64,000 nt of DNA, from UHGV virus genome UHGV-1356548; one strand, 5' to 3'. A program made the translations under genes and the position numbers. Under the pieces are notes generated by a model, which was given only the letters and a program-made list of their open reading frames with translations, searched no databases and was not told the DNA's origin. This document shows positions 14,816 through 30,650 of the stretch, in pieces. This DNA comes from a virus. Position 1 is the stretch's first letter. Each line of letters opens with the position of its first letter.

Positions 14816-15105
14816 GACTTTTTAGTCTTTCTTGGAGAGCTTTTTGTTGATCTTTTTCTTTTGTGGTAAATTCCAAGTGCAGCATTTTCTTGGGCACACG
14901 TTTTAACGGTTTTTAGATCAGAGCTTTCAGCTTTAGGTAGATTAAGCTCCCACCAACCCAACCAGTAAAGCTCTGATTCCGACAACTGCTCAGATTCAGA
15001 CTTCCGATACAAGGCTTGCATACCTCTGATGATATCGTCCAGAGGTGTATCGAATACAAAAGCTGTCTTATCAAATTTCTCTTTTGCAGGTTTCTTAGCC
15101 ATCAA
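14812..15105 (-). CDS. hypothetical protein
   Basis: 97-aa Lys-rich ORF. Confidence 0.3.
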   Translation of the reverse strand: MMAKKPAKEKFDKTAFVFDTPLDDIIRGMQALYRKSESEQLSESELYWLGWWELNLPKAESSDLKTVKTCAQENAALGIYHKRKRSTKSSPRKTKKS

Positions 15106-15559
15106 GGTAACCTTCTATCCACGAAAAGTCAGTCTTCCATTCTGGAACTTTACTAAGCTCACGCCACTCTGCAAAGCAGTCTCGGTAATAGGCCTCTGCC
15201 ATACCCTTGGTGATCTTATTCACCTTAGCCAACTGATTAACTGCCTGAGCATACTTTCCACGGATATTTGCTAACCCAGGATGCACAGATGTGTGACAAT
15301 CTGGGCACAACGCTATCAGTCCGACAAGCCGGATCACTCCCTCTTCGAAAGTGTAAAGTTCATGACACTCCACTGGATGTTTGCTGCCTTTACCTCCGCA
15401 CACCTCACAAGTGTAGTTGGCTTCTCTGTAGCACTTCTTACGGATCTTATCCCACTCACTCTTCTTCACAGCGTTTCGTAGGTTATTATACCAAGCTGTT
15501 TCTGGGATCAGTTGCACAATAAGCCTGCGTTCAGACTTCATTAAACGTCCGTCTTCCAC
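15095..15559 (-). CDS. HNH-type zinc-finger endonuclease candidate
   Basis: CEVCGGKGSKHPVECHEL ... LCPDCHTSVH arrangement (CxxC...H...CxxCH) typical of HNH nucleases. Confidence 0.4.
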   Translation of the reverse strand: MEDGRLMKSERRLIVQLIPETAWYNNLRNAVKKSEWDKIRKKCYREANYTCEVCGGKGSKHPVECHELYTFEEGVIRLVGLIALCPDCHTSVHPGLANIRGKYAQAVNQLAKVNKITKGMAEAYYRDCFAEWRELSKVPEWKTDFSWIEGYLDG

Positions 15560-16433: not shown

Positions 16434-17717
16434 TCATTCCAGAACCTCCCAAGTGTCTGGGTCAACATTTCGGACGCAGATACCGACAGGGAATTGGTAG
16501 TTGTTGTCTTCTGTCCTTGATTGATATTTGAAGGTGACAAACTTGCCGATCATTTCCTGCATCCTGTCATAGCTACGCTCCTCGTGCGTGCCTTTCATCT
16601 TCATTTTAACAATAACACCTTCCTTGTCAACACAGATAAGAACACCTTCATCATTCTTATCTTTCTCAACGTCAATAACTTTCACCTCTGCGTCGTTGAA
16701 CTTTTTCCATTTCAATGCTTCAGATGTTCGCTGACCGTACTCGTATTTACCGCAGAAATTACGCATGATAGTACCTTCATATCCTTCGGACATGAATATA
16801 CCAACAGATTCTTCGCAATGATCAACTGTGTACGCAAGCTCTGCGTCAACAACCTTGATATGGTCAAGCATCAGAGTGGTAACGGTATCCTCTGCATCCA
16901 TAAGATCCTTGCAGCGTCCAGACTCTGTTTCTGGATCCCACCACACCTTGTCGCTAGGAATATCAAAAATGTGATACTCCAGATCGTAGCTACAGTACCC
17001 ACCGTAACGCAAATCATCACGAACAGGCTCAACATCGACAGGAATATCTACCTTGTTGAAGTTTTTGTATGTTGATAAACCTGCCTTAATTGCTGCATGA
17101 CGGCGTTTTTTATCTGCCTCATAGTCTTTATCGATCTCGGCCTGAATCTCTTCCTGTGTGCGCCACCGTTTAGCAAGAGACACTATTTTCTGCAAAGGAA
17201 GACCATGAATGTATAGTTCCCCATCAAGTTGTTTAATCCCAGTGGTAGAATGGAAAGAACGAAGTTGCTCTAAAAGCTTTCCTTGAATAGGGTAGGACTT
17301 ATTACCACGGGAAATAAATTTAGGCTCACCATTTTGGAAAACAACAAGCAGACGAAGGCCATCTAACTTACGCAAGATCCAGCAAGGTAATTTAAGTGCC
17401 TTGCCACGCTTCAGGTAGTCATGCACCAGCATGGGTAAAAGATCAACACCCTGCTCGCAATCTTCCATGTTTTCAACATACCCCAGACGGACTTGTTTTT
17501 CCCACTTGCTGATAGCCTCAAGCTCGGCCTGTTGCTCAGCTGTAGTCTCGTTGGCACGACCTACGTTCTTAGGTGTGCATACCGTCTCTTTGTACTGCAG
17601 TTTACCATCAAGCTTGCCAAACTCTACGATAACCTTATCACCATCCGTGAATACTTTCCACTGTTGGTAGCTGCCATCTTTATTCAGTGCGTACAGTGTT
17701 GTTTTGATCTGATGCAT
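16434..17717 (-). CDS. ATP-dependent DNA ligase (intact copy)
   Basis: Motif I KLDGLR (KxDGxR), motif III LDGELYIHG, motif IV EGTIMR, motif V LKWKK; 427 aa. Its last 47 codons lie outside the duplicated unit. Confidence 0.7.
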   Translation of the reverse strand: MHQIKTTLYALNKDGSYQQWKVFTDGDKVIVEFGKLDGKLQYKETVCTPKNVGRANETTAEQQAELEAISKWEKQVRLGYVENMEDCEQGVDLLPMLVHDYLKRGKALKLPCWILRKLDGLRLLVVFQNGEPKFISRGNKSYPIQGKLLEQLRSFHSTTGIKQLDGELYIHGLPLQKIVSLAKRWRTQEEIQAEIDKDYEADKKRRHAAIKAGLSTYKNFNKVDIPVDVEPVRDDLRYGGYCSYDLEYHIFDIPSDKVWWDPETESGRCKDLMDAEDTVTTLMLDHIKVVDAELAYTVDHCEESVGIFMSEGYEGTIMRNFCGKYEYGQRTSEALKWKKFNDAEVKVIDVEKDKNDEGVLICVDKEGVIVKMKMKGTHEERSYDRMQEMIGKFVTFKYQSRTEDNNYQFPVGICVRNVDPDTWEVLE

Positions 17718-17986
17718 TACTCGGCCTCTTCCTTAAAAATTTTAAACATCTCTTCTTTACTCATTACCAACCAGTCTCCCATAAAGTCAACTAGCCAATC
17801 TCCCTGGTACAAGACAAGGTTACCAAAAGGCTCGACAAGCTCACACATGCGACGAAGATCTCTGGTCCGAACAGGTGACGATGTAAACACACCTGTATCA
17901 ATCCACCGTTGCAGATCAGATACTGATGAAGAGCTTCCGTCAAACTGATGTGCTTCTACAGGTTTAGCAAGATTAAATAACGGCAT
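17717..17986 (-). CDS. hypothetical protein
   Basis: 89-aa ORF; stop overlaps ligase start (TAATG). Confidence 0.3.
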   Translation of the reverse strand: MPLFNLAKPVEAHQFDGSSSSVSDLQRWIDTGVFTSSPVRTRDLRRMCELVEPFGNLVLYQGDWLVDFMGDWLVMSKEEMFKIFKEEAE

Positions 17987-18281
17987 TGCAGTCCTCCTTC
18001 TGTAGTAGGTCTTTTATAGGATAAACAAGTAAGTGTGGGTCGTAATAACGTATAGTCCTATTCTGCCACACTATGAACTTTATTACAACCAAATTTACAA
18101 TATCTTTATCACCATGTAGCCCAACACACACATTTGTCCATATTTTGTGGTTGAAGACCTTGCTATCGATGTAGATTTTAGTGTCAAACTTATCTTCCAT
18201 TCTACCAATAAGTTTGATCAGCTCCTTCATCTGGTCGCCAAACACAGCATCTTTTTCAAGATCTCTGGAATGCTTGTACAT
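17973..18281 (-). CDS. hypothetical protein
   Basis: 102-aa ORF. Confidence 0.3.
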   Translation of the reverse strand: MYKHSRDLEKDAVFGDQMKELIKLIGRMEDKFDTKIYIDSKVFNHKIWTNVCVGLHGDKDIVNLVVIKFIVWQNRTIRYYDPHLLVYPIKDLLQKEDCNAVI

Positions 18282-18310
18282 AACTGACTACCTCACTGCA
18301 TACTTTCCAT

Positions 18311-18336
18311 AATAAGTAAAGCCGGGTAATCCCGGC
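18311..18336 (-). terminator. rho-independent terminator (copy 1)
   Basis: Minus-strand GCCGGG-ATTA-CCCGGC hairpin followed by UUUACUUAUU, just 3' of the MazG-like gene stop. Confidence 0.5.
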
Positions 18337-18343
18337 TATGTTG

Positions 18344-19057
18344 TTAAATATACTCTGTTACATCCTTGAAGCTCGAAGGCTTCATAATCTTACCTTTACT
18401 GTCAAGGAATATAATAACTTTATTGCCGTTGTAGAACTCCTCTTTAGCAACGAAACCTTCGTAGCGACCACCAAAACGACGCTCAAGATCTTTAATCTCC
18501 AACTCGATGAGTTGTTCAGCAGGCATATCTGCACTGGCACCGTGTGAATGCCGTAGATGGTTGATCCGTGCAAACTTACTGTCATTAGATTTTAGAACCT
18601 TCCGCATCATCCCACACACATCCCCGCTAAGCTGGAACAGCAAAGCTGTTGATAACTCCGCTAGTCGGTAAGCTGACGCTCTTTGCTTGGATGTGTTTTT
18701 CGCAGCGATCAGTGTATCATAGAACTCACCGATCTTGAACTTAAGACCTCGCGGATTATCAAACAGGTTTGACCACTTTTCGTGGTTATCATTAACAAGA
18801 TAAGCTGCATAACTTGTGACAACGTGAAGATCGCAGGCCTCTTTTAGCAGGTGATCTCCACCATCACCTTTCTCCAGCTCTTCCAAAACCTCATTGAACT
18901 CTTCCTCAATGAAGCTAAGCTGTAATTCGAATGGTGTGTATGATTTTTTCACTTTAGCTGCCACACGGTTCCAGTTTTCCACCCAGTTGGCAGACCAAAG
19001 GTAGTTTTCAGGCTGGGACAGTTTTTCCAGGTTGTCGATCAGTTTAGTATTCAGCAT
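18344..19057 (-). CDS. MazG-like nucleotide pyrophosphohydrolase domain protein
   Basis: FIEEEFNEVLEELEKGDGGDHLLKEACDLHVV fits the EExxE...E...D acidic helix pattern of MazG/NTP-PPase family; C-terminal ~100 aa unassigned. Confidence 0.4.
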   Translation of the reverse strand: MLNTKLIDNLEKLSQPENYLWSANWVENWNRVAAKVKKSYTPFELQLSFIEEEFNEVLEELEKGDGGDHLLKEACDLHVVTSYAAYLVNDNHEKWSNLFDNPRGLKFKIGEFYDTLIAAKNTSKQRASAYRLAELSTALLFQLSGDVCGMMRKVLKSNDSKFARINHLRHSHGASADMPAEQLIELEIKDLERRFGGRYEGFVAKEEFYNGNKVIIFLDSKGKIMKPSSFKDVTEYI

Positions 19058-19070
19058 TAAAGGTCTCCTT

Positions 19071-19832
19071 TTAAAGTTCCATAAAGTTTTCTACAGTTTC
19101 AATAAATGCTTTATCAGAGAAAGCGTCAACAGCACCGTTAAACCATACAGGGATCCCGCGATCCTCATATTGATAAAGGTCGCTACGTGAAATGCCACTT
19201 CCATCTGCACTCTGCGAATCATACTTGTTTACAATCAGCAGTTTTGTGCCTTTACAAGTAGCAGGAAACAATTCCCAGTTAAAATTAATAACTGTGTTAG
19301 AACAACCTACCAGGATCACCATATCATTGCTTGTGAGAGATGTCAACAGGTCATACATGTCTGTATACTTAGGAGCAACCTCACCGAAGAACACTACATT
19401 GGGCTTAACCCAGGTATACTTGCCTGTATCTACCTCCGTGTATCCGATATTTTTAATTACATCATTACCTTCAGCATCTTCGTAGGTGATTTCAGGCAAA
19501 TACCCGTGGACATGTAAAATATCTTCATGTTTTACACCAGCACGCTCCAGCAAATCATCTACATTGGTAGTAAGGTTGATCACACGACCAGACCAGCGGG
19601 AATACCACTCAGCGATCCGAAGATGTGCAAGGTTAGGATCAACACTGCCCAGAGCTACACGACGTGCATTGTAAAAGTCATGCACCTTATAGTAGTTCTT
19701 GGCAAAGGTGTGGATGTTGCACACCTCATCGATGCTGAAATTCTCCCACATTGCAGTGCTACCAGATCGGAAAGTGGGAATACCAGATTCAGCGCTCAAA
19801 CCAGCACCGGAGATAATAATCAGTCGTCGCAT
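19071..19832 (-). CDS. Sir2-family (sirtuin-like) NAD-dependent protein, Zn-module absent
   Basis: GAGLSAESGIPTFR (sirtuin GAGxSxxSGIPxFR), DPNLAHL...TTNVDDLLERAG (PNxxH...TQNxDxLhxxAG), HVHG, KPNVVFFGE (RPxVVxFGE); no CxxC...CxxC zinc tetrad. Confidence 0.8.
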   Translation of the reverse strand: MRRLIIISGAGLSAESGIPTFRSGSTAMWENFSIDEVCNIHTFAKNYYKVHDFYNARRVALGSVDPNLAHLRIAEWYSRWSGRVINLTTNVDDLLERAGVKHEDILHVHGYLPEITYEDAEGNDVIKNIGYTEVDTGKYTWVKPNVVFFGEVAPKYTDMYDLLTSLTSNDMVILVGCSNTVINFNWELFPATCKGTKLLIVNKYDSQSADGSGISRSDLYQYEDRGIPVWFNGAVDAFSDKAFIETVENFMEL

Positions 19833-19840
19833 AAGTGTCC

Positions 19841-20191
19841 TCAGTAGATGTTTTGTTTAATCTCTATTCCAAACTTCTTGAATGAGTCAGCAGCAAGCAT
19901 AAATTTACGAGCTGCCGATGGATTAGAAGTATGCACGAAAATAATCACGTTGTCAATAAGTGGTGGCTTTCCGAATACAAGTTTCTCCTCTAGCGCAGAG
20001 AAGCAGTCGTACCCTTCAAGCACTTCACCTAGATCATTGTCAAAATGCCACTCAGAAACGCGCCTGTAGAGCTTTCTATTATCGTTAATAAAATCCATGA
20101 ACTCAGAAGAGTTCTTCAGCCAAAGAGCATCTTGGATTCCGTAATTTGACGGATCTCTCAAGTCATCTAGCCACACAATCAACTTCTTCAT
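19841..20191 (-). CDS. hypothetical protein
   Basis: Start set to ATG forming an ATGA overlap with the RNA ligase stop (MKKLIVWLDD...); 116 aa. Confidence 0.4.
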   Translation of the reverse strand: MKKLIVWLDDLRDPSNYGIQDALWLKNSSEFMDFINDNRKLYRRVSEWHFDNDLGEVLEGYDCFSALEEKLVFGKPPLIDNVIIFVHTSNPSAARKFMLAADSFKKFGIEIKQNIY

Positions 20192-21123
20192 TGCATATAG
20201 TCCTCGTTGTGAAAATAGCAATCAAGTATCTCACGGCGTTCCTGCTCCAGGAGGCAGTTCCACACATCTTCTGTGTAATTGCTACGAATGAAGTTTACCA
20301 TGCCATAAAACTCTTCGTCAATACGTTTAAAGATATCATCATCCCAAATCTTCCAAGCTTTACCCCTCATTACGGCCTTCCGTGCCAAATAGTATGGAGA
20401 CTTGATCTTCAGCTGCAGGTCATAAGGGTAGTAAGGCTTACGGATCATATACCCTTCGCCCCTTGTTTCTGCAGCTAATTCTTTTGCATAGCTGAACGGG
20501 ATTTCACGCACAGTGTGAGGACGTTTTGCACCAAGGTATTTGGCAATCCCATCTAAAGCTGCTTCTGGTAGCATTATTCCAGAATCATTATATCTGCAAC
20601 CTATCAAATATGCGCCATGGTCTTCTTGAACAATATGCGGATCTGAAGGGTGACAAATTTCAAACATGAATGTCATGTTTTCATTGCCCATAACCTTCTT
20701 GATAAGATCTAAATTACCACATTGCTCTTGGATGGTTTCCTTTGCAAGGTTACAATATGGAGAATCAAGAGACCCGGTTGTTGAGAACAATAGGTCACCT
20801 TTATGAGATGATACCACACCAAGGAATCCGTTCTTTTTCTCTACCGCAGTCACAAGCTTATTGTCAGGCAGGTTGGTGGAGTTTTCTCCCAAGTTAAACA
20901 CTTTTGTGAAGGGCCATGCCACAACATTTCCTTCATTACCTACAACAATGCCTCGGCACTCCAGTAAACGAGGGGACAAATGCCATAAATTGTTGTAAAA
21001 TACTTTTCTAGCATATTTATAGATCTTTAACCCGAGATCTGGGTAATACCTACTGGTTACAAGACCTTTGTCAACTAGGTCGTCTGCATTAAAATACTTC
21101 ATCATACGTTCCTCATTTGTCAT
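20188..21123 (-). CDS. RNA ligase-like nucleotidyltransferase
   Basis: Candidate motif I VEKKNGFLG (K-x-N-G), motif IV EGYMIRKPY, motif V LKIKSPYY; 311 aa; adjacent to kinase/phosphoesterase genes. Confidence 0.55.
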   Translation of the reverse strand: MTNEERMMKYFNADDLVDKGLVTSRYYPDLGLKIYKYARKVFYNNLWHLSPRLLECRGIVVGNEGNVVAWPFTKVFNLGENSTNLPDNKLVTAVEKKNGFLGVVSSHKGDLLFSTTGSLDSPYCNLAKETIQEQCGNLDLIKKVMGNENMTFMFEICHPSDPHIVQEDHGAYLIGCRYNDSGIMLPEAALDGIAKYLGAKRPHTVREIPFSYAKELAAETRGEGYMIRKPYYPYDLQLKIKSPYYLARKAVMRGKAWKIWDDDIFKRIDEEFYGMVNFIRSNYTEDVWNCLLEQERREILDCYFHNEDYMQ

Positions 21124-21166
21124 TTTGTCAGTCTATCCTGCCACACAAATAACCTAGTGTCAACAC

Positions 21167-21195
21167 TTGAAATTAACAAAACAGTCAGGTATACT
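21167..21195 (+). promoter_or_regulatory. sigma70-like promoter, duplicated copy at the duplication junction
   Basis: TTGAAA-N17-TATACT identical to the kinase promoter at 25828-25856; here it points into the antisense of the truncated ligase copy. Confidence 0.45.
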
Positions 21196-21235
21196 ACCGT
21201 TGAAATTAAAACGGAGGGTCACTATGTCTAAAATG

Positions 21236-22378
21236 CTATATATCGTGCGTGCCTTTCATCTTCATTTTAACAATAACACCTTCCTTGTCAACACAGATAA
21301 GAACACCTTCATCATTCTTATCTTTCTCAACGTCAATAACTTTCACCTCTGCGTCGTTGAACTTTTTCCATTTCAATGCTTCAGATGTTCGCTGACCGTA
21401 CTCGTATTTACCGCAGAAATTACGCATGATAGTACCTTCATATCCTTCGGACATGAATATACCAACAGATTCTTCGCAATGATCAACTGTGTACGCAAGC
21501 TCTGCGTCAACAACCTTGATATGGTCAAGCATCAGAGTGGTAACGGTATCCTCTGCATCCATAAGATCCTTGCAGCGTCCAGACTCTGTTTCTGGATCCC
21601 ACCACACCTTGTCGCTAGGAATATCAAAAATGTGATACTCCAGATCGTAGCTACAGTACCCACCGTAACGCAAATCATCACGAACAGGCTCAACATCGAC
21701 AGGAATATCTACCTTGTTGAAGTTTTTGTATGTTGATAAACCTGCCTTAATTGCTGCATGACGGCGTTTTTTATCTGCCTCATAGTCTTTATCGATCTCG
21801 GCCTGAATCTCTTCCTGTGTGCGCCACCGTTTAGCAAGAGACACTATTTTCTGCAAAGGAAGACCATGAATGTATAGTTCCCCATCAAGTTGTTTAATCC
21901 CAGTGGTAGAATGGAAAGAACGAAGTTGCTCTAAAAGCTTTCCTTGAATAGGGTAGGACTTATTACCACGGGAAATAAATTTAGGCTCACCATTTTGGAA
22001 AACAACAAGCAGACGAAGGCCATCTAACTTACGCAAGATCCAGCAAGGTAATTTAAGTGCCTTGCCACGCTTCAGGTAGTCATGCACCAGCATGGGTAAA
22101 AGATCAACACCCTGCTCGCAATCTTCCATGTTTTCAACATACCCCAGACGGACTTGTTTTTCCCACTTGCTGATAGCCTCAAGCTCGGCCTGTTGCTCAG
22201 CTGTAGTCTCGTTGGCACGACCTACGTTCTTAGGTGTGCATACCGTCTCTTTGTACTGCAGTTTACCATCAAGCTTGCCAAACTCTACGATAACCTTATC
22301 ACCATCCGTGAATACTTTCCACTGTTGGTAGCTGCCATCTTTATTCAGTGCGTACAGTGTTGTTTTGATCTGATGCAT
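21236..22378 (-). pseudogene. 3'-truncated duplicate of ATP-dependent DNA ligase
   Basis: Identical to residues 1-377 of the 16434-17717 product, then ends ...GTHDI* at the duplication junction, losing the last 47 residues. Confidence 0.6.
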
Positions 22379-22647
22379 TACTCGGCCTCTTCCTTAAAAA
22401 TTTTAAACATCTCTTCTTTACTCATTACCAACCAGTCTCCCATAAAGTCAACTAGCCAATCTCCCTGGTACAAGACAAGGTTACCAAAAGGCTCGACAAG
22501 CTCACACATGCGACGAAGATCTCTGGTCCGAACAGGTGACGATGTAAACACACCTGTATCAATCCACCGTTGCAGATCAGATACTGATGAAGAGCTTCCG
22601 TCAAACTGATGTGCTTCTACAGGTTTAGCAAGATTAAATAACGGCAT
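22378..22647 (-). CDS. hypothetical protein (duplicate of 17717-17986)
   Basis: Identical translation to copy 1. Confidence 0.3.
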   Translation of the reverse strand: MPLFNLAKPVEAHQFDGSSSSVSDLQRWIDTGVFTSSPVRTRDLRRMCELVEPFGNLVLYQGDWLVDFMGDWLVMSKEEMFKIFKEEAE

Positions 22648-22942
22648 TGCAGTCCTCCTTCTGTAGTAGGTCTTTTATAGGATAAACAAGTAAGTGTGGG
22701 TCGTAATAACGTATAGTCCTATTCTGCCACACTATGAACTTTATTACAACCAAATTTACAATATCTTTATCACCATGTAGCCCAACACACACATTTGTCC
22801 ATATTTTGTGGTTGAAGACCTTGCTATCGATGTAGATTTTAGTGTCAAACTTATCTTCCATTCTACCAATAAGTTTGATCAGCTCCTTCATCTGGTCGCC
22901 AAACACAGCATCTTTTTCAAGATCTCTGGAATGCTTGTACAT
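22634..22942 (-). CDS. hypothetical protein (duplicate of 17973-18281)
   Basis: Identical translation to copy 1. Confidence 0.3.
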   Translation of the reverse strand: MYKHSRDLEKDAVFGDQMKELIKLIGRMEDKFDTKIYIDSKVFNHKIWTNVCVGLHGDKDIVNLVVIKFIVWQNRTIRYYDPHLLVYPIKDLLQKEDCNAVI

Positions 22943-22971
22943 AACTGACTACCTCACTGCATACTTTCCAT

Positions 22972-22997
22972 AATAAGTAAAGCCGGGTAATCCCGGC
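22972..22997 (-). terminator. rho-independent terminator (copy 2)
   Basis: Duplicate of the 18311-18336 hairpin. Confidence 0.5.
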
Positions 22998-23004
22998 TAT
23001 GTTG

Positions 23005-23718
23005 TTAAATATACTCTGTTACATCCTTGAAGCTCGAAGGCTTCATAATCTTACCTTTACTGTCAAGGAATATAATAACTTTATTGCCGTTGTAGAACTC
23101 CTCTTTAGCAACGAAACCTTCGTAGCGACCACCAAAACGACGCTCAAGATCTTTAATCTCCAACTCGATGAGTTGTTCAGCAGGCATATCTGCACTGGCA
23201 CCGTGTGAATGCCGTAGATGGTTGATCCGTGCAAACTTACTGTCATTAGATTTTAGAACCTTCCGCATCATCCCACACACATCCCCGCTAAGCTGGAACA
23301 GCAAAGCTGTTGATAACTCCGCTAGTCGGTAAGCTGACGCTCTTTGCTTGGATGTGTTTTTCGCAGCGATCAGTGTATCATAGAACTCACCGATCTTGAA
23401 CTTAAGACCTCGCGGATTATCAAACAGGTTTGACCACTTTTCGTGGTTATCATTAACAAGATAAGCTGCATAACTTGTGACAACGTGAAGATCGCAGGCC
23501 TCTTTTAGCAGGTGATCTCCACCATCACCTTTCTCCAGCTCTTCCAAAACCTCATTGAACTCTTCCTCAATGAAGCTAAGCTGTAATTCGAATGGTGTGT
23601 ATGATTTTTTCACTTTAGCTGCCACACGGTTCCAGTTTTCCACCCAGTTGGCAGACCAAAGGTAGTTTTCAGGCTGGGACAGTTTTTCCAGGTTGTCGAT
23701 CAGTTTAGTATTCAGCAT
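23005..23718 (-). CDS. MazG-like domain protein (duplicate)
   Basis: Identical translation to 18344-19057. Confidence 0.4.
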   Translation of the reverse strand: MLNTKLIDNLEKLSQPENYLWSANWVENWNRVAAKVKKSYTPFELQLSFIEEEFNEVLEELEKGDGGDHLLKEACDLHVVTSYAAYLVNDNHEKWSNLFDNPRGLKFKIGEFYDTLIAAKNTSKQRASAYRLAELSTALLFQLSGDVCGMMRKVLKSNDSKFARINHLRHSHGASADMPAEQLIELEIKDLERRFGGRYEGFVAKEEFYNGNKVIIFLDSKGKIMKPSSFKDVTEYI

Positions 23719-23731
23719 TAAAGGTCTCCTT

Positions 23732-24493
23732 TTAAAGTTCCATAAAGTTTTCTACAGTTTCAATAAATGCTTTATCAGAGAAAGCGTCAACAGCACCGTT
23801 AAACCATACAGGGATCCCGCGATCCTCATATTGATAAAGGTCGCTACGTGAAATGCCACTTCCATCTGCACTCTGCGAATCATACTTGTTTACAATCAGC
23901 AGTTTTGTGCCTTTACAAGTAGCAGGAAACAATTCCCAGTTAAAATTAATAACTGTGTTAGAACAACCTACCAGGATCACCATATCATTGCTTGTGAGAG
24001 ATGTCAACAGGTCATACATGTCTGTATACTTAGGAGCAACCTCACCGAAGAACACTACATTGGGCTTAACCCAGGTATACTTGCCTGTATCTACCTCCGT
24101 GTATCCGATATTTTTAATTACATCATTACCTTCAGCATCTTCGTAGGTGATTTCAGGCAAATACCCGTGGACATGTAAAATATCTTCATGTTTTACACCA
24201 GCACGCTCCAGCAAATCATCTACATTGGTAGTAAGGTTGATCACACGACCAGACCAGCGGGAATACCACTCAGCGATCCGAAGATGTGCAAGGTTAGGAT
24301 CAACACTGCCCAGAGCTACACGACGTGCATTGTAAAAGTCATGCACCTTATAGTAGTTCTTGGCAAAGGTGTGGATGTTGCACACCTCATCGATGCTGAA
24401 ATTCTCCCACATTGCAGTGCTACCAGATCGGAAAGTGGGAATACCAGATTCAGCGCTCAAACCAGCACCGGAGATAATAATCAGTCGTCGCAT
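23732..24493 (-). CDS. Sir2-family protein (duplicate)
   Basis: Identical translation to 19071-19832. Confidence 0.8.
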   Translation of the reverse strand: MRRLIIISGAGLSAESGIPTFRSGSTAMWENFSIDEVCNIHTFAKNYYKVHDFYNARRVALGSVDPNLAHLRIAEWYSRWSGRVINLTTNVDDLLERAGVKHEDILHVHGYLPEITYEDAEGNDVIKNIGYTEVDTGKYTWVKPNVVFFGEVAPKYTDMYDLLTSLTSNDMVILVGCSNTVINFNWELFPATCKGTKLLIVNKYDSQSADGSGISRSDLYQYEDRGIPVWFNGAVDAFSDKAFIETVENFMEL

Positions 24494-24501
24494 AAGTGTC
24501 C

Positions 24502-24852
24502 TCAGTAGATGTTTTGTTTAATCTCTATTCCAAACTTCTTGAATGAGTCAGCAGCAAGCATAAATTTACGAGCTGCCGATGGATTAGAAGTATGCACGAA
24601 AATAATCACGTTGTCAATAAGTGGTGGCTTTCCGAATACAAGTTTCTCCTCTAGCGCAGAGAAGCAGTCGTACCCTTCAAGCACTTCACCTAGATCATTG
24701 TCAAAATGCCACTCAGAAACGCGCCTGTAGAGCTTTCTATTATCGTTAATAAAATCCATGAACTCAGAAGAGTTCTTCAGCCAAAGAGCATCTTGGATTC
24801 CGTAATTTGACGGATCTCTCAAGTCATCTAGCCACACAATCAACTTCTTCAT
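24502..24852 (-). CDS. hypothetical protein (duplicate of 19841-20191)
   Basis: Identical translation to copy 1. Confidence 0.4.
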   Translation of the reverse strand: MKKLIVWLDDLRDPSNYGIQDALWLKNSSEFMDFINDNRKLYRRVSEWHFDNDLGEVLEGYDCFSALEEKLVFGKPPLIDNVIIFVHTSNPSAARKFMLAADSFKKFGIEIKQNIY

Positions 24853-25784
24853 TGCATATAGTCCTCGTTGTGAAAATAGCAATCAAGTATCTCACGGCGT
24901 TCCTGCTCCAGGAGGCAGTTCCACACATCTTCTGTGTAATTGCTACGAATGAAGTTTACCATGCCATAAAACTCTTCGTCAATACGTTTAAAGATATCAT
25001 CATCCCAAATCTTCCAAGCTTTACCCCTCATTACGGCCTTCCGTGCCAAATAGTATGGAGACTTGATCTTCAGCTGCAGGTCATAAGGGTAGTAAGGCTT
25101 ACGGATCATATACCCTTCGCCCCTTGTTTCTGCAGCTAATTCTTTTGCATAGCTGAACGGGATTTCACGCACAGTGTGAGGACGTTTTGCACCAAGGTAT
25201 TTGGCAATCCCATCTAAAGCTGCTTCTGGTAGCATTATTCCAGAATCATTATATCTGCAACCTATCAAATATGCGCCATGGTCTTCTTGAACAATATGCG
25301 GATCTGAAGGGTGACAAATTTCAAACATGAATGTCATGTTTTCATTGCCCATAACCTTCTTGATAAGATCTAAATTACCACATTGCTCTTGGATGGTTTC
25401 CTTTGCAAGGTTACAATATGGAGAATCAAGAGACCCGGTTGTTGAGAACAATAGGTCACCTTTATGAGATGATACCACACCAAGGAATCCGTTCTTTTTC
25501 TCTACCGCAGTCACAAGCTTATTGTCAGGCAGGTTGGTGGAGTTTTCTCCCAAGTTAAACACTTTTGTGAAGGGCCATGCCACAACATTTCCTTCATTAC
25601 CTACAACAATGCCTCGGCACTCCAGTAAACGAGGGGACAAATGCCATAAATTGTTGTAAAATACTTTTCTAGCATATTTATAGATCTTTAACCCGAGATC
25701 TGGGTAATACCTACTGGTTACAAGACCTTTGTCAACTAGGTCGTCTGCATTAAAATACTTCATCATACGTTCCTCATTTGTCAT
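24849..25784 (-). CDS. RNA ligase-like nucleotidyltransferase (duplicate)
   Basis: Identical translation to 20188-21123. Confidence 0.55.
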   Translation of the reverse strand: MTNEERMMKYFNADDLVDKGLVTSRYYPDLGLKIYKYARKVFYNNLWHLSPRLLECRGIVVGNEGNVVAWPFTKVFNLGENSTNLPDNKLVTAVEKKNGFLGVVSSHKGDLLFSTTGSLDSPYCNLAKETIQEQCGNLDLIKKVMGNENMTFMFEICHPSDPHIVQEDHGAYLIGCRYNDSGIMLPEAALDGIAKYLGAKRPHTVREIPFSYAKELAAETRGEGYMIRKPYYPYDLQLKIKSPYYLARKAVMRGKAWKIWDDDIFKRIDEEFYGMVNFIRSNYTEDVWNCLLEQERREILDCYFHNEDYMQ

Positions 25785-25827
25785 TTTGTCAGTCTATCCT
25801 GCCACACAAATAACCTAGTGTCAACAC

Positions 25828-25856
25828 TTGAAATTAACAAAACAGTCAGGTATACT
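25828..25856 (+). promoter_or_regulatory. sigma70-like promoter of kinase/phosphoesterase operon
   Basis: TTGAAA (25828-25833), 17-bp spacer, TATACT (25851-25856); GGAGGG RBS precedes ATG 25885; direct repeat TTGAAATTAA occurs twice in this region. Confidence 0.5.
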
Positions 25857-25884
25857 ACCGTTGAAATTAAAACGGAGGGTCACT

Positions 25885-26295
25885 ATGTCTAAAATGCTAT
25901 ATATCGTGCGTGGTCTACCAGGGTCTGGCAAATCAACACTGGCAAATGCGCTATCTTTAGAGGGTCTGTATCCACATTTTGAGAACGACATGTTCTGGTA
26001 TGACGATGACGGCAATTACAACTGGGATGCAAGTAAAGTAACACTCGCAGCAAAATGGTGCAAAGATAACGTAGAAGATATGATGCGTATGGGATACGAC
26101 CGTATCGTGGTAAGTAATACGTTTACAAAAGAAAAACATGTGCAGGAATATGTTGACATGGCAATCAGTCATGGGTATAGTTATACCGTGATCGTGGTTG
26201 AAAACCGCCACGGTAATAAAAGCATTCATGATGTTCCAGACAAGGTTGTGGATCGTATGGAACGCCAGCTTAAAAACTGCATTAAACTTAAATGA
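25885..26295 (+). CDS. P-loop polynucleotide 5'-kinase-like protein
   Basis: Walker A RGLPGSGKST at residues 9-18 and overall resemblance to the kinase domain of T4 Pnk; start moved to ATG 25885 (the ORF-track TTG start at 25828 lies in the promoter). Confidence 0.55.
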   Translation: MSKMLYIVRGLPGSGKSTLANALSLEGLYPHFENDMFWYDDDGNYNWDASKVTLAAKWCKDNVEDMMRMGYDRIVVSNTFTKEKHVQEYVDMAISHGYSYTVIVVENRHGNKSIHDVPDKVVDRMERQLKNCIKLK

Positions 26296-26302
26296 GGAAT
26301 GT

Positions 26303-26857
26303 ATGAAATACTTTGTAACAAGCGACACACACTTTCTCCACCAGCGGGTCATGGAGTTTGATTCATGTCAAAAACACAGATCTCAGTATGATCACAATCT
26401 TGACAGTATGAATGCGGGAATCATCGCCAAGTGGAACTCTGTTGTGTCACCTGCAGACACTGTGTTCCACTTGGGAGATATTGCGTGCACTAATGATAAG
26501 AATATCAACAACTTACTTCCAGATATTCTAAATATGTTGAACGGACATATTATTCTTGTTCGTGGCAACCATGACACAAGGACGACTGTCAGAATTATGA
26601 AAGAGTTCGGTCATGAGGTTGTAGATTATTACGAGCTTCGCCACAACAAGAATTTGATCTGTATGAGCCATTACCAGTTTGCAAAGTGGAACAGAAAGCC
26701 TCACGGATCAGTCCAACTGTTCGGTCATGCTCACGGAACCACACAACAGTTGTTTGGCAGGCAGCTTGATGTCGGTTGGGATGTGTGGGGGAGACTCTTA
26801 CCATTAGAAGAGGCATACCGTATTGCAATGAGTTTTGATATTGACAGCAGGGAGTAA
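26303..26857 (+). CDS. calcineurin-like metallophosphoesterase
   Basis: Motifs VTSDTHF (DxH), GDIA (GD), GNHD, GHAH in canonical order; start at ATG 26303 (MKYFVTSDTHF). Confidence 0.7.
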   Translation: MKYFVTSDTHFLHQRVMEFDSCQKHRSQYDHNLDSMNAGIIAKWNSVVSPADTVFHLGDIACTNDKNINNLLPDILNMLNGHIILVRGNHDTRTTVRIMKEFGHEVVDYYELRHNKNLICMSHYQFAKWNRKPHGSVQLFGHAHGTTQQLFGRQLDVGWDVWGRLLPLEEAYRIAMSFDIDSRE

Positions 26858-26870
26858 TCCCTGCTATTTT
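26846..26870 (+). terminator. rho-independent terminator
   Basis: AGCAGGGA-GTAA-TCCCTGCT hairpin (stop codon in loop) followed by ATTTT. Confidence 0.5.
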
Positions 26871-26904
26871 AAAGAAAATTGCCACACAAGGAGAATCAGG
26901 AGAT

Positions 26905-27255
26905 ATGAAAGATGGGGATAAGCTGCTATATCTTAAAGTCCCCCTTGAAATACTATCTATGTCAAAAGTTTTGAATGACACAACTGGGGAGGTTGTTGTT
27001 CTTGACTTGTATGACAAGATCGTATACTGCTACCTGCACAACTGGTATAAGCTTGGAGGAAATTCACGCTTCACACCAAGCACAAGGAAAATTGCAGCAG
27101 ATGTTGGGATAAAGAAAACAAAAGCAGCAGCGTGCGTTAAAACTTTAGAATGTGCAGGAGTGGTTGAAACATCCACACAAGGGAGAGGTAAAAGATGCAC
27201 ATTTTCCAAAGTTTTGCCACCAGAAGAAGTTATTCGGATGTCAACAACTGGTTAG
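26905..27255 (+). CDS. small putative DNA-binding protein (possible winged-helix)
   Basis: 116-aa ORF with AGGAGA RBS; segment PSTRKIAADVGIKKTKAAACVKTLECAGVVE resembles an HTH/winged-helix recognition region; sits directly upstream of the iteron array. Confidence 0.3.
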   Translation: MKDGDKLLYLKVPLEILSMSKVLNDTTGEVVVLDLYDKIVYCYLHNWYKLGGNSRFTPSTRKIAADVGIKKTKAAACVKTLECAGVVETSTQGRGKRCTFSKVLPPEEVIRMSTTG

Positions 27256-27329
27256 ACCAGTAAAAACTTAAATATCTGTACTATAAGGATTCGTATGTTT
27301 TATGTTCGCCATGGAACGGATACTATTAA

Positions 27330-27412
27330 CTGTCCGTGATACGGACACTACTGTCCGTCACGCGGACACATCTGCCCGTAATACGGACACTAGCTGTCCG
27401 TGATACGGACAC
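27330..27412. repeat. iteron array: four 19-bp dyad-symmetric repeats
   Basis: CTGTCCGTGATACGGACAC (27330), CTGTCCGTCACGCGGACAC (27351), CTGCCCGTAATACGGACAC (27372), CTGTCCGTGATACGGACAC (27394); spacing 21/21/22 bp; each has inverted half-sites GTCCG...CGGAC; a degenerate half-site ACGGATAC sits at about 27316. Confidence 0.85.
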
Positions 27413-27916
27413 ATAAAGAATATAACTAAAATAACTAAATAATAAAAAAATAAAAGATCTAGTACTTATGGTACTAAGTACATATACTTAACTTATGTAG
27501 AATATACTAGATCCTAAGTACCATGTTTTAAATTTATTACTTACTATGGGCAGTGTCGGCCCTTCATTGGCACTCGCCTACGAGGGGCGAGATGCCGGGC
27601 CTCTTTGGTGCACACAATAACAGAAGTTCATACATACAGGTCTGTTAACATGTGTGGGAGCGAAGCGATAGCGCAGGCCAAAGGCCGAGCACTGATGTGG
27701 ACCACCGACGAAAGCTTGCCAGCGCCGTAAGGAGTCGGTTGAGAGTCTCCCGCGCGAGCTTGGATGAAGTTTATGTGTGGAAACTGACAAGAAGGCCCCT
27801 AAATCGCTCCACAGCTATATAAACTATACCAGGTAATGCAATCGCACCAGTTTGATAGAAAAGCTCGTTACAAAGCGATACAGTTAGTTTTTCTATAACT
27901 TGAAGAGGAGGCAGCT

Positions 27917-29792: not shown

Positions 29793-29867
29793 GCCCTGTT
29801 AGCTTAGTGGATAAAGCAGCGGCCTTCTAAGCCGTTGACACTGGTTCGAGTCCAGTACGGGGTGCCA
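29793..29867 (+). tRNA. tRNA-Arg (anticodon UCU)
   Basis: Cloverleaf by hand: acceptor GCCCTGT/ACGGGGT, D-arm GCTT...AAGC, anticodon loop CTTCTAA, T-loop TTCGAGT, encoded CCA. Confidence 0.75.
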
Positions 29868-29871
29868 AATT

Positions 29872-29958
29872 GGGGAGTTATCCCGTAGGGGTAGCGGTGT
29901 AGACTGTAAATCTATTGTCATTGCGACTCGGGTGGTTCGACTCCACCACTCCCCACCA
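29872..29958 (+). tRNA. tRNA-Tyr (anticodon GUA), class II
   Basis: Acceptor GGGGAGT/ACTCCCC, anticodon loop CTGTAAA, long variable arm resembling E. coli tRNA-Tyr, T-loop TTCGACT, encoded CCA. Confidence 0.8.
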
Positions 29959-30072
29959 AATTTATAGTTTTAAATGCATAAATCATACAGATAATGGCAT
30001 TGATATTTATCGTCGTTTATACTAGTCACTAACTGCTCGAAAATCAGTGTCATTATCAGTATTGTTTATAAA

Positions 30073-30163
30073 TGAGGGTAGGGAGCAATGGTGCTCAAGC
30101 GGTCTTGAAAACCGTCCCGTTGAGGATGACTTGATGATGGTTCGATTCCATTACCCTCAGCCA
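30073..30163 (+). tRNA. tRNA-Ser (anticodon UGA), class II
   Basis: Acceptor TGAGGGT/ACCCTCA, anticodon arm GCGGT-CTTGAAA-ACCGT, long variable arm, T-loop TTCGATT, encoded CCA; 5' boundary +/-1 nt. Confidence 0.7.
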
Positions 30164-30260
30164 TATTGTTGACCTTGTAATTAAGCGAAAGCCGGAAGCA
30201 GAACCGGATTATCAAATGTTACAGTCGTCATCGCCGACTAGCAACATGGTCAACATACTG

Positions 30261-30359
30261 AGCTAGGTAAGCCCTTTGGCAAGGGCGAGGATTTTTAATC
30301 CTGAAAATAGACGAGGTAGTCGTTGAATACATAGGTGGTTCGATTCCATCACCTAGCAC
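30261..30359 (+). tRNA. atypical tRNA-like gene, Lys-type anticodon loop (UUU), oversized variable region
   Basis: Perfect 7-bp acceptor GCTAGGT/ACCTAGC, D-arm GCCC-TTTGGCAA-GGGC, anticodon arm AGGA-TTTTTAA-TCCT, T-arm GGTGG-TTCGATT-CCATC, but 32 nt (with its own GACGA-GGTAG-TCGTT hairpin) between anticodon and T arms; 3' end is CCT not CCA. Confidence 0.4.
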
Positions 30360-30364
30360 CTTTT

Positions 30365-30440
30365 TGCTGATGTAGCACAATTGGTAGTGCAATTGATTTG
30401 TAATCAATAGGTTGCAGGTTCAAGTCCTGCCATCAGCACC
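30365..30440 (+). tRNA. tRNA-Thr (anticodon UGU)
   Basis: Acceptor GCTGATG/CATCAGC, anticodon arm ATTGA-TTTGTAA-TCAAT, T-loop TTCAAGT, encoded CCA. Confidence 0.85.
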
Positions 30441-30441
30441 A

Positions 30442-30516
30442 TGGCCCTGTAGCTGGAAGGTTCAAGCAAGCGACTCATAATCGCCAGACGGTGGTTCAAT
30501 TCCACCCAGGGCCACC
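30442..30516 (+). tRNA. tRNA-Met (anticodon CAU; elongator or Ile-lysidine type)
   Basis: Acceptor GGCCCTG/CAGGGCC with G1-C72 pair, anticodon arm GCGA-CTCATAA-TCGC, T-loop TTCAATT, encoded CCA. Confidence 0.8.
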
Positions 30517-30527
30517 AAATAATAAAT

Positions 30528-30604
30528 ACTCCGCGTAGCTCAGCTTGGTAGAGCGCCTGATTTGGGATCAGGAGGTCGAGTGTTCGAATCACTCCGTGGA
30601 GACC
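30528..30604 (+). tRNA. tRNA-Pro (anticodon UGG)
   Basis: Acceptor CTCCGCG/CGTGGAG with the C1-G72 pair typical of bacterial tRNA-Pro, D-arm GCTC...GAGC, anticodon arm CCTGA-TTTGGGA-TCAGG, T-loop TTCGAAT, encoded CCA. Confidence 0.85.
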
Positions 30605-30650
30605 ACTTTCAGTTATACTTTAAACATATACAAACAAAAGGAACCTTTAA

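Follow-up and report, generated by a model that had tools for sequence, protein, structure and literature searches.

A stretch of 64,000 nucleotides from the viral genome UHGV-1356548 (the window) probably carries the RNA end-healing-and-sealing island of Vequintavirus, duplicated in tandem by recombination at a 9-bp sequence, TCGTGCGTG. By sequence, the genome is that of a Vequintavirus, an rV5-like E. coli myophage, near phage I29, to which it is 100% and 99.94% identical on either side of the duplication junction. The open reading frames of the RNA ligase (both copies), kinase, phosphoesterase, Sir2 and MazG-like protein all lie where the original prediction for this DNA had placed them, and a 116-aa cREC gene, which it had overlooked, lies among them. 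The island and its surroundings comprise the following features.

16434-17717, minus strand: full-length ATP-dependent DNA ligase, 427 aa (PF01068 and PF14743; annotated as DNA ligase in I29)
22378-22647 and 22634-22942, minus strand: two small ORFs of 89 aa and 102 aa (copy 1 at 17717-18281)
23005-23718, minus strand: candidate MazG-like all-alpha NTP pyrophosphohydrolase, 237 aa (phrog_671, 2e-21; copy 1 at 18344-19057)
23732-24493, minus strand: Sir2 sirtuin of the CobB/SIRT5 type, 253 aa (PF02146, 7e-28; copy 1 at 19071-19832)
24502-24852, minus strand: cREC (cyclic-phosphate-processing receiver-like) protein, 116 aa (PF20274, 4e-14; copy 1 at 19841-20191)
24849-25784, minus strand: Rnl1-family ATP-dependent RNA ligase, 311 aa (PF09511; copy 1 at 20188-21123)
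25785-25884, no strand: divergent control region between ligase and kinase, 100 bp (whole second copy at 21124-21223)
25828-25856, plus strand: promoter-like TTGAAA-17-TATACT (10 of 12 matches; a consensus match only)
25885-26295, plus strand: stand-alone Pnk-type (N4BP2-like, AAA_33) 5'-OH polynucleotide kinase, 136 aa (PF13671, 1e-10; single copy)
26303-26857, plus strand: binuclear metallophosphoesterase of the aq_1665 type, 184 aa (PF12850 and PF00149, both over cut-off; single copy)
29793-30605, plus strand: tRNA cluster (Arg-TCT, Tyr, Ser, one odd tRNA, Thr, Met, Pro), 3 kb downstream, regarded as context outside the RNA-repair cassette

The 311-aa protein is identified by its conserved motifs as an RNA ligase of the Rnl1 family in which no catalytic residue is missing. 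It scores 55 bits against PF09511 (cut-off 28), its family profile matches T4 Rnl1 (2C5U, 3e-14), and the best Foldseek matches of its AF2 model (pLDDT 90.8) are Rnl3, T4 Rnl1 and Trl1; its score against the NCBIfam equivalog, 38.7, is far under the cut-off of 242. Among 28 homologues, R57, K74, F76, K96xNG, E155, E223-G224, K239 and K241 are invariant, and motifs I, III, IV and V align with T4 Rnl1, including the motif I lysine, K96, on which the original prediction had staked its reading. The protein extends about 65 aa past motif V compared with about 130 in T4 Rnl1, so that most of the C-terminal tRNA-specificity domain of the latter is absent.

The profile and motifs of the 136-aa protein identify it as a stand-alone Pnk-type 5'-OH polynucleotide kinase. 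Its nearest solved relatives, as the proposed family check had anticipated, are polynucleotide kinases of RNA repair or tRNA splicing, namely Pnkp1 (4XRP, 7e-8), T4 Pnk (2e-7), the Mucorales 5'-OH kinase and the CthPnkp kinase (4GP7, 1e-5), and its homologues in phages DrSchubert and HdK5 are annotated as polynucleotide kinases. The RGxxGxGK P-loop and D35, which is aligned to D35 of T4 Pnk, are invariant; T4 Pnk Arg38 has no counterpart in the kinase, whose lid also lacks an invariant arginine. The 184-aa protein, encoded 7 nt downstream, is recognized as an intact binuclear metallophosphoesterase, over the PF00149 cut-off as had been expected, with all five metal-binding motifs invariant (DxH, GD, GNH, H and GHxH). 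Its profile matches aq_1665 (1XM7, 2e-21), the nearest solved relative and a protein without known function; it has no detectable similarity to any solved RNA-repair phosphatase and is not near the CthPnkp or lambda-phosphatase clade.

Further genes accompany that of the ligase. The cREC gene, between the ligase and Sir2 genes, overlaps the ligase stop by 4 nt, and its product scores 53 bits against PF20274 (cut-off 27), with D9, D10, D51, D53, S89 and K96 invariant. The sirtuin matches E. coli CobB (1S5P, 3e-21) and conserves the GAGxSxxSGIPxFR motif and the catalytic His; in the alignment to CobB, no Cys occupies the Zn-ribbon cysteine positions. The MazG-like protein has no Pfam match, its phrog_671 annotation being "nucleotide pyrophosphohydrolase"; E52, E53, E56 and D76 are invariant, and its profile matches HisE (1YVW) weakly (E = 0.02). 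The two small ORFs match phrog_14585 and phrog_7684, both of "unknown function".

From what is observed, namely membership of the families, active-site motifs that are intact, linkage of the genes and fusion of kinase with ligase, we infer the substrates and every catalytic step of a repair pathway. The kinase would phosphorylate the 5'-OH, the cyclic phosphate would be opened or removed by the metallophosphoesterase, cREC or both, and the ligase, adenylylated at Lys96, would seal the break. In Vequintavirinae-like phages, the ligase operon additionally carries cREC, a zinc-less sirtuin and the MazG-like hydrolase, which may constitute an NAD+-dependent branch (after Iyer et al., 2022), in which cREC would leave a 2'-phosphate and the sirtuin would take it off in the fashion of Tpt1/KptA.

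The distribution of these genes was surveyed in 80 IMG/VR loci seeded with ligase homologues of 35-89% identity. Within 10 kb of the ligase, the kinase is found in 74 loci and the phosphoesterase in 62, while cREC, Sir2 and MazG occur with the ligase in only 11-13, which makes a part in RNA repair less certain for them than for the trio. It is possible, though rather doubtful, that the trio repairs RNA alone and that Sir2, cREC and MazG make up a separate counter-defence unit of the NAD+/ADP-ribose or nucleotide-signal kind, which merely shares the operon and might, for example, degrade immune signalling nucleotides or modify a host protein. The counts agree with such a separation, sirtuins and MazG-type enzymes have other roles in conflict, and cREC is predicted to act on cyclic ADPr derivatives as well. 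However, relatives of about 49% identity have cREC and Sir2 interspersed with the ligase and kinase genes (order ligase-cREC-kinase-Sir2) at gaps of 20-40 nt, the ligase and cREC genes overlap in the window, and Iyer et al. report this clade of sirtuins from three distinct neighbourhoods of RNA-end processing.

The gene combination, which had been called unfamiliar, is not new, as it has already been published as a predicted RNA-repair system. Iyer, Burroughs, Anantharaman and Aravind (2022; Viruses 14:1977; PMC9503650) described a sirtuin-centred neighbourhood of sirtuin, T4-like tRNA ligase, cREC, nucleotide kinase and MazG, with or without a calcineurin-like phosphoesterase. Their configuration 2, with Escherichia phage V5 and Proteus phage Mydo as prototypes, has the identical gene set in the same phage genus. 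That study is computational only and includes neither the trio core beyond sirtuin-bearing phages, nor kinase-ligase fusions, nor any duplication, whereas the present genome has most of the island in duplicate.

Healing by a metallophosphoesterase is also established, since that of CthPnkp has been proven experimentally to heal 2',3'-cyclic-phosphate RNA ends together with T4 Rnl1 (PMC1920235). The Clostridium thermocellum Pnkp system (with Hen1) has the triad of chemistries and a detectably related kinase domain in common with the island, but there they reside in one polypeptide and here in three genes, with a ligase of Rnl1 type and a phosphoesterase of aq_1665 type; domain annotation of the neighbouring ORFs identifies no Hen1. 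T4 Pnkp and Rnl1, which act against PrrC, are alike in the ligase catalytic residues, the Asp general base of the kinase and the logic of healing followed by sealing. They differ in that the kinase here is not fused to a HAD (DxDxT) phosphatase, the binuclear metallophosphoesterase is the candidate for that activity, and cREC, Sir2 and MazG genes are added. With fungal and plant Trl1, the ligase shares PF09511 and the ligase-domain fold; the kinase is related to the Mucorales tRNA-splicing kinase, and a possible NAD+-dependent step would parallel Tpt1 (KptA). In place of a 2H enzyme, cREC or the metallophosphoesterase would act as the cyclic phosphodiesterase, and the NAD+ enzyme is a sirtuin rather than of ART fold, its RNA 2'-phosphotransferase activity being hypothetical.

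What is new is that the RNA-repair island block has recently been copied in tandem in this one genome. Bases 16582-21251 equal 21243-25912 one for one, a 4,670-base run at an offset of 4,661, which makes a perfect head-to-tail 4,661-bp duplication with a 9-bp shared junction. The second ligase, noted earlier as a copy, is indeed identical, but it is one arm of this duplication, which had gone unseen along with the truncated DNA ligase and chimeric ORF that it created.

16582-21242, no strand: copy 1, 4,661 bp, without mismatch to 21243-25903
21243-25903, no strand: copy 2, 4,661 bp
21243-21251, no strand: novel junction with the 9-bp microhomology TCGTGCGTG
21236-22378, minus strand: 3'-truncated second DNA ligase, 380 aa (residues 1-378 common to both, then DI-stop)
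21224-21736, plus strand: chimeric ORF made by the junction

The 9-mer also occurs inside the DNA ligase gene (16582-16590) and at codons 7-9 of the kinase gene (25904-25912), and a recent recombination between these two sites probably generated the tandem array. Within the block lie the control region, the ligase-cREC-Sir2-MazG operon, both small ORFs and, from the DNA ligase gene, the 5' 1,136 bp. The ligase operon thereby reaches double dosage, and the kinase and phosphoesterase remain single copy. With the left breakpoint inside the full-length DNA ligase gene, the second DNA ligase diverges after residue 378, which destroys the OB domain (residues 356-416 of the full-length protein). In the chimeric ORF, the first nine kinase codons are fused to DNA ligase antisense, preceded by the duplicate of the kinase's promoter-like site (21167-21195).

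The duplication is known from a single assembled sequence. It is absent from all 121 related phage records, I29 and 120 others carrying the block once, and from 10 contigs with an identical ligase; the junction at 21243 was not found in phage, IMG/VR, genome, metagenome or E. coli collections, and no compensating deletion is visible within the 64-kb window. The unique junction, the 100% identity of the copies and a deduced genome of about 141.7 kb (should it otherwise match I29), larger than the largest listed relative (140.5 kb), would suit an artefact of assembly, chimeric reads or record editing, the real phage having a single island. This is unlikely, as breakpoints from assembler overlap or circularisation are arbitrary, whereas here they share a 9-bp microhomology (P = 5e-5 for at least 9 bp at random breakpoints in the window sequence), of which exactly one copy is kept, the signature of T4-type illegitimate recombination. 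Moreover, short-read assemblers collapse rather than create perfect 4.7-kb repeats, and the block is not the terminal repeat, which measures 459 bp in phage Gotham of the same genus.

Taken as a genuine duplication, the array has a junction whose anatomy is that of defence-driven T4 segmental amplifications, and selection may have been its cause. Amplification of T4 dmd-tifA against toxIN (eLife, 2022) likewise gives head-to-tail repeats, with 6-10 bp of microhomology and one copy left, and that of T6 tRNA-Tyr-segB against Septu (Nat Commun, 2026) gives head-to-tail repeats with reported junction microhomology. In these cases the amplified cargo counters an RNA-targeting defence, as the island would; here, by contrast, there are only two copies, seen in one assembled sequence.

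Across distant phages, a conserved cassette unites the ligase, kinase and phosphoesterase. In the 80 loci, kinase and ligase are separated by a median of 77 nt, the co-directional order phosphoesterase, ligase, kinase occurs in 41, and a single ORF fuses kinase and ligase in 12. A reciprocal kinase-seeded set (n=79) contains the phosphoesterase in 57 loci and an Rnl1-like ligase in 29. These data also bear on a rival reading, in which the kinase and phosphoesterase do not partner the RNA ligase but process DNA ends or free nucleotides, for example alongside the nearby DNA ligase or in dNMP metabolism. In its favour, the AAA_33 and Metallophos_2 families cover diverse functions, a DNA ligase gene shares the gene block and is found no more than 10 kb from the RNA ligase in 44 of the 80 loci, and relatives on viral contigs number at least 572 for the kinase and at least 542 for the phosphoesterase against 96 for the ligase. 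This is nevertheless quite improbable, since the kinase abuts or is fused to the RNA ligase while the DNA ligase is typically 2-4 kb off, the best solved relatives of the kinase act on RNA, and, in 29 longer (at least 14 kb) kinase loci lacking an Rnl1-like ligase, the top neighbour is another RNA ligase family, Rnl2-type PF09414 (11 of 29). That the ligase is mainly a tail-fibre attachment factor, like the second activity of T4 gp63, is most improbable, because the label "RNA ligase and tail fiber protein attachment catalyst" of phrog_562 and many GenBank records is inherited from gp63, and the gene lies among early nucleic-acid-metabolism genes rather than tail genes, strictly conserves all ligase catalytic residues and is linked or fused to a polynucleotide kinase.

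With RNA repair by the trio as the preferred reading, the original assignment of an RNA ligase, a separate kinase and a metallophosphoesterase holds in families, motifs and linkage across distant phages; its functional reading passes the in-silico tests proposed for it, and its interpretation as a whole is partly supported. The divergent pairing of ligase and kinase that it described is true of this genome, with a 100-bp spacer, but it is not general: one of the 80 loci has it, the genes being co-directional elsewhere, and the arrangement is peculiar to Vequintavirus.

The window derives from a Vequintavirus, an rV5-like myophage of E. coli. Bases 18000-27500 are 100% identical to Escherichia phage I29 (ON286975.1), and 122 other records match this stretch at 80% or more, all but one of them above 90%. 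Outside a tandem duplication, the window and I29 are colinear, with 100% identity over 52-21251 and 99.94% identity over 21243-64000, where three isolated SNPs and a variable patch of 40 bp account for the differences. The possibility that the window is the I29 record itself was rejected: the SNPs, the patch and an unrelated first 51 bases identify the source as a very close relative of I29. The patch (63648-63688) is almost wholly unlike I29 in genomes that are elsewhere 99.99% identical, and it lies at the boundary between a small ORF and a baseplate gene, bordered by an imperfect inverted repeat (63640-63657 / 63765-63782). Bases 1-51, upstream of a run of 12-14 adenines, match nothing in the part of I29 that was checked (11 kb, 77000-88000). 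Since I29 carries a gene with a T5orf172 domain beyond the corresponding point, this edge is probably a mosaic or mobile-gene boundary.

The genes with which this analysis is concerned are arranged on both strands as follows.

23005-23718, minus strand, MazG-like gene
23732-24493, minus strand, Sir2 sirtuin gene
24502-24852, minus strand, ORF for a 116-residue cREC protein, overlapping the RNA ligase stop by 4 nt
24849-25784, minus strand, RNA ligase gene
25885-26295, plus strand, kinase gene, separated from the divergent RNA ligase gene by a 100-bp spacer
26303-26857, plus strand, metallophosphoesterase gene, 7 nt after the kinase gene

All ORFs named in the original prediction are present at the positions given there, including the Sir2 and MazG-like genes; the cREC ORF had been overlooked. 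The four minus-strand genes are tightly packed, with gaps of no more than 13 nt; beyond them come a hairpin rich in GC, a pair of small ORFs and the gene for a DNA ligase. The hairpin AGCCGGGTAATCCCGGCT is perfect, occurs at 22981-22998 and 18320-18337 between the MazG-like gene and a 102-aa ORF, and may end the ligase-cREC-Sir2-MazG transcription unit, although its T tail is weak. At the other end of this unit, no sigma-70-like promoter for the ligase operon was found in the 100-bp spacer.

The RNA ligase scores 55.3 bits against PF09511 (gathering score 28.3) and only 38.7 against the NCBIfam equivalog model TIGR02308, which has a cut-off of 242; the protein is best classified as a member of the Rnl1 family and not as an ortholog or equivalog of T4 RnlA. 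ATP-dependent joining of 3'-OH and 5'-PO4 RNA ends is its predicted activity. Searching solved structures with the ligase or the kinase sequence by itself returned nothing useful, and family profiles were needed for both. A profile of 28 ligase homologues aligns with T4 Rnl1 (2C5U) at 3e-14 across the nucleotidyltransferase domain. In the Rnl1 family, the lysine of the motif I KxxG is the residue that becomes adenylylated; a catalytic lysine at this position, on which the original prediction hinged, is present as K96 of a K-K-N-G motif that is invariant in the 28 homologues and pairs with T4 K99EDG. Motifs III, IV and V (E155, E223-G224, K239, K241) and the Rnl1-specific N-terminal residues R57, K74 and F76 are likewise invariant and aligned to 2C5U, so that each T4 Rnl1 residue with a known essential role is matched by an invariant one in the profile. 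The pairs, window ligase first, are R57/R54, K74/K75, F76/F77, K96xNG/K99EDG, E155/E159, E223-G224/E227-G228, K239/K240 and K241/K242. An AlphaFold model of the ligase (pLDDT 90.8) matches archaeal Rnl3, T4 Rnl1 and the ligase domain of fungal Trl1 with E values of about 1e-11. T4 Rnl1 owes its tRNA specificity to an all-helical C-terminal domain (about residues 255-374), whereas the profile alignment of the window ligase to 2C5U stops at residue 249 without reaching such a domain, and past motif V the model shows no more than a helical tail of some 65 residues (243-310).

The kinase, an AAA_33 match, was predicted from the outset to be a P-loop protein resembling polynucleotide kinase, and its family profile agrees with this. 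The P-loop (GxxGxGK[ST]) is present as R9-G10-x-x-G13-x-G15-K16-S17, with R9, G10, G15 and K16 invariant and G13 almost invariant. The invariant D35 pairs with the Asp of 'NRDDY' in T4 Pnk, also D35, which there is the general-base aspartate contacting the 5'-OH. An equivalent of the T4 phosphoacceptor residue R38 is not conserved, the residue three past D35 being aromatic (F/Y/W), and, as regards the T4 lid arginine R126, the arginine of the 'ENRHG' lid is not invariant. Among solved structures, a profile of 29 kinase sequences gives extended matches to Pnkp1 (7e-8), a member of the Pnkp1-Rnl-Hen1 repair complex, T4 Pnk (2e-7), PSTK (6e-7), mammalian PNKP (9e-6) and the kinase of CthPnkp (1e-5), and the Mucorales tRNA-splicing 5'-OH kinase is also among the best of these. 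Adenylate, shikimate and gluconate kinases align at the P-loop only. As judged by profile, the closest solved relatives of the kinase are polynucleotide or tRNA-linked kinases and not nucleotide kinases. With 136 residues, it is a single-domain protein that lacks the fused HAD (DxDxT) 3'-phosphatase of T4-type Pnkp; the proposed division of the end-healing activities between two proteins would involve the separate PF12850/PF00149 metallophosphoesterase next to it.

This calcineurin-type neighbour scores above the cut-offs of both PF12850 and PF00149, as had been anticipated, and its five binuclear-metal motifs (D8xH10, G58D59, G88N89H90, H123 and G141H142xH144) are invariant in 30 homologues. 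Among solved structures, the nearest to it is aq_1665 (1XM7; 2e-21), a protein without known function. The profile found no RNA-repair phosphatase among solved chains, and the search says little on kinship to CthPnkp, since the only CthPnkp chains encountered are 171-residue kinase-domain entries. A role in RNA-end healing, as a 2',3'-cyclic phosphodiesterase and 2'/3'-phosphomonoesterase, is putative and draws its support from gene linkage.

Three further proteins are encoded in the ligase operon. The cREC protein matches PF20274 (4e-14; 53.4 bits against a cut-off of 27), and D9, D10, D51, D53, S89 and K96 are invariant, which include the acidic pair and central Asp of a receiver-like fold; its neighbours are RNA-repair genes, with no histidine-kinase partner. 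The Sir2 protein (PF02146) aligns to E. coli CobB (1S5P) at 3e-21 and has the GAGxSxxSGIPxFR NAD+-binding motif and the catalytic His. The segment aligned to the Cys-containing region of CobB contains no cysteine, the four-cysteine zinc ribbon being absent; the protein is a CobB/SIRT5-like sirtuin of a zinc-less clade. The MazG assignment, based on PHROG 671, an EExxE...D motif and a HisE match with E = 0.02, is the weakest of the protein calls.

Conservation of the gene set was surveyed in 80 IMG/VR loci that encode homologues of the ligase at 35-89% identity, using iterated HMMs built from the window proteins. The kinase lies within 10 kb of the ligase in 74 of the 80 loci, with a median gap of 77 nt, and the phosphoesterase in 62. 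Co-directional layouts are usual: 41 loci read phosphoesterase > ligase > kinase, 13 have kinase > ligase > phosphoesterase and another 15 have kinase > ligase. The divergent pairing of ligase and kinase put forward in the original prediction is real in the window, but among the 80 loci it is represented by the single rV5-like one. In 12 loci (uncultivated viral contigs L036, L037, L041-L043, L046, L049-L052, L054 and L055), kinase and ligase are fused in a single ORF that runs without interruption for about 420 aa, the kinase being N-terminal to the Rnl1-like ligase. No aq_1665-type phosphoesterase is found within 10 kb of these fusions, so that 3'-end healing there must be the task of a different enzyme. 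Reciprocally, 79 kinase-seeded loci contain the phosphoesterase in 57 cases and an Rnl1-like ligase in 29, and 80 phosphoesterase-seeded loci contain the ligase in 44 and the kinase in 48. Among neighbours on the same strand in 29 longer kinase-seeded loci without an Rnl1-like ligase, an Rnl2-type ligase (PF09414) is the most frequent, with 11 loci. That the kinase partners RNA ligases of two unrelated families speaks for a role in RNA-end chemistry and against one in nucleotide or DNA metabolism. Ligase, kinase and phosphoesterase thus form a broadly conserved phage core cassette, in which kinase and ligase are sometimes fused. The cREC, Sir2 and MazG genes stand beside the ligase in only 11-13 of the 80 loci, from phages of about 140-150 kb, and in several of these loci the genes alternate as ligase-cREC-kinase-Sir2. 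The three genes thus form an add-on that is specific to a clade and lies within the operon.

Although the combination had been called unfamiliar, the exact neighbourhood was described, with phage V5 named, by Iyer, Burroughs, Anantharaman and Aravind (Viruses 2022, PMC9503650, section 3.7.3), who proposed RNA-end clean-up and ligation; the cREC concept comes from the same Aravind group's jumbo-phage paper. Their type 2 sirtuin-centred neighbourhood comprises a sirtuin, a T4-like ligase, cREC, a nucleotide kinase, MazG and, in some cases, a calcineurin-like phosphoesterase, and all six lie within 23005-26857 of the window. As PMC9503650 already describes it, the module is known as a prediction and does not represent a new type of system. 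Experimental studies of the Vequintavirus module were not found in a literature search. The RNA-repair reading itself is supported in silico by families, motifs, linkage and fusions, while its novelty falls away. For the trio, T4 Pnkp/Rnl1 and CthPnkp are the healing-and-sealing precedents. In the NAD+ branch hypothesised by Iyer et al., cREC would make a 2'-phosphate, the sirtuin would then remove it in the manner of Tpt1/KptA, and other enzymes would clear the ADP-ribose products. Two elements are new in comparison with the published module: the core-cassette linkage and the duplication. The linkage data sharpen the published prediction, in that the three-gene cassette is widespread and its core separable from the sirtuin/cREC/MazG add-on, and the orphan structural-genomics family aq_1665 gains a functional context.

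The second ligase gene noted in the original prediction (20188-21123) exists, not as a mere gene copy but as one arm of a tandem duplication. Bases 16582-21251 equal 21243-25912 base for base, which defines a 4,661-bp head-to-tail duplication. Both parental breakpoints, one inside the DNA ligase gene and the other at kinase codons 7-9, carry the 9 bp TCGTGCGTG, of which one copy is left at the junction (21243-21251); when 2 million breakpoint pairs were sampled at random from this sequence, microhomology of at least 9 bp had P = 5e-5. Besides the ligase-cREC-Sir2-MazG operon and the two small ORFs, the duplicated unit includes the complete divergent control region and, from the DNA ligase gene, the 5' 1,136 bp. 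The ligase operon is consequently present in two expressible copies, the kinase and phosphoesterase genes in one each, and two ORFs arise at the junction.

21236-22378, second DNA ligase ORF of 380 aa, without the OB domain
21224-21736, plus strand, chimeric ORF with the duplicated kinase promoter-like site, the first nine kinase codons and then the antisense of the DNA ligase gene

Segmental amplifications that arise in T4 under selection by toxIN match this arrangement, being head-to-tail with a microhomology of typically 6-10 bp, one copy of which is left between adjacent repeats (PMC9391042), and T6, confronted with Septu, builds tandem repeats of a comparable kind whose junction also shows microhomology (PMC13096335). 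We consider it likely that the duplication is a real and recent recombination event. The junction is private to this sequence among the collections searched: it is spanned by none of 120 related phage records and was not found in IMG/VR, GTDB genomes, JGI metagenomes or complete E. coli genomes. The 2.8-kb block from MazG to ligase occurs exactly once in 121 of 121 records, with no second copy of the island in any relative, and the 10 public contigs that encode an identical ligase have one copy each. An artefact, with the island single-copy in the real phage, would share this private distribution; set beside the 9-bp microhomology, it seems the less likely source of the repeat. A direct terminal repeat or circularisation overlap was rejected, because each breakpoint falls within a gene, the two sharing a 9-bp microhomology, and the terminal repeat of the Vequintavirus phage Gotham measures 459 bp (PMC7471380).

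If the recombination event is real, the duplication is a naturally occurring variant in the dosage of a counter-defence island. It is conceivable, though we give it little credence, that it is an adaptive 'gene accordion' in a natural isolate, in which an RNA-cleaving or NAD+-depleting host defence selected a doubled dosage of the ligase-cREC-Sir2-MazG operon together with its control region. Were this so, that operon would be the rate-limiting counter-defence arm, and an I29-like single-copy phage and this genome would form an isogenic pair for the question of whether a zinc-less sirtuin is a Tpt1-like RNA 2'-phosphotransferase. A real and selected duplication would also mean that escape by segmental amplification, known from T4 and T6 evolved in the laboratory, extends to a Vequintavirus in the wild, and would point to the defence that the module answers. 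A homologue of an I29 HNH endonuclease gene lies at about 15095-15559 on the minus strand (coordinates from the I29 annotation), roughly 1 kb left of the left breakpoint; as a homing endonuclease drives segmental amplification in T6 (PMC13096335), this gene is a lead to the origin of the duplication.

A tRNA cluster is located 3 kb downstream of the cassette, so that genes for tRNA supply and tRNA repair neighbour each other. Within this cluster, the tRNA-like gene at 30262-30360 is unusually long (97-99 nt) and scores only 35.5 bits as a tRNA in Rfam; ARAGORN assigns it no amino acid and an 'anticodon' of four bases (atcc). Two further ARAGORN calls, tRNA-Tyr (29872-29958) and tRNA-Ser (30073-30163), are unannotated in I29 and fall under the Rfam threshold. 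Closer to the cassette, 27327-27412 holds four direct repeats of 21-22 bp, each with the palindrome TGTCCGTGATACGGACA, just downstream of an HTH ORF resembling a replication initiation protein (26905-27255; phrog_12838/HTH_36). These repeats adjoin a switch in GC skew and transcription direction (at about 26 kb), lie 1.4 kb from the right duplication breakpoint, and are a candidate replication origin or iteron array.
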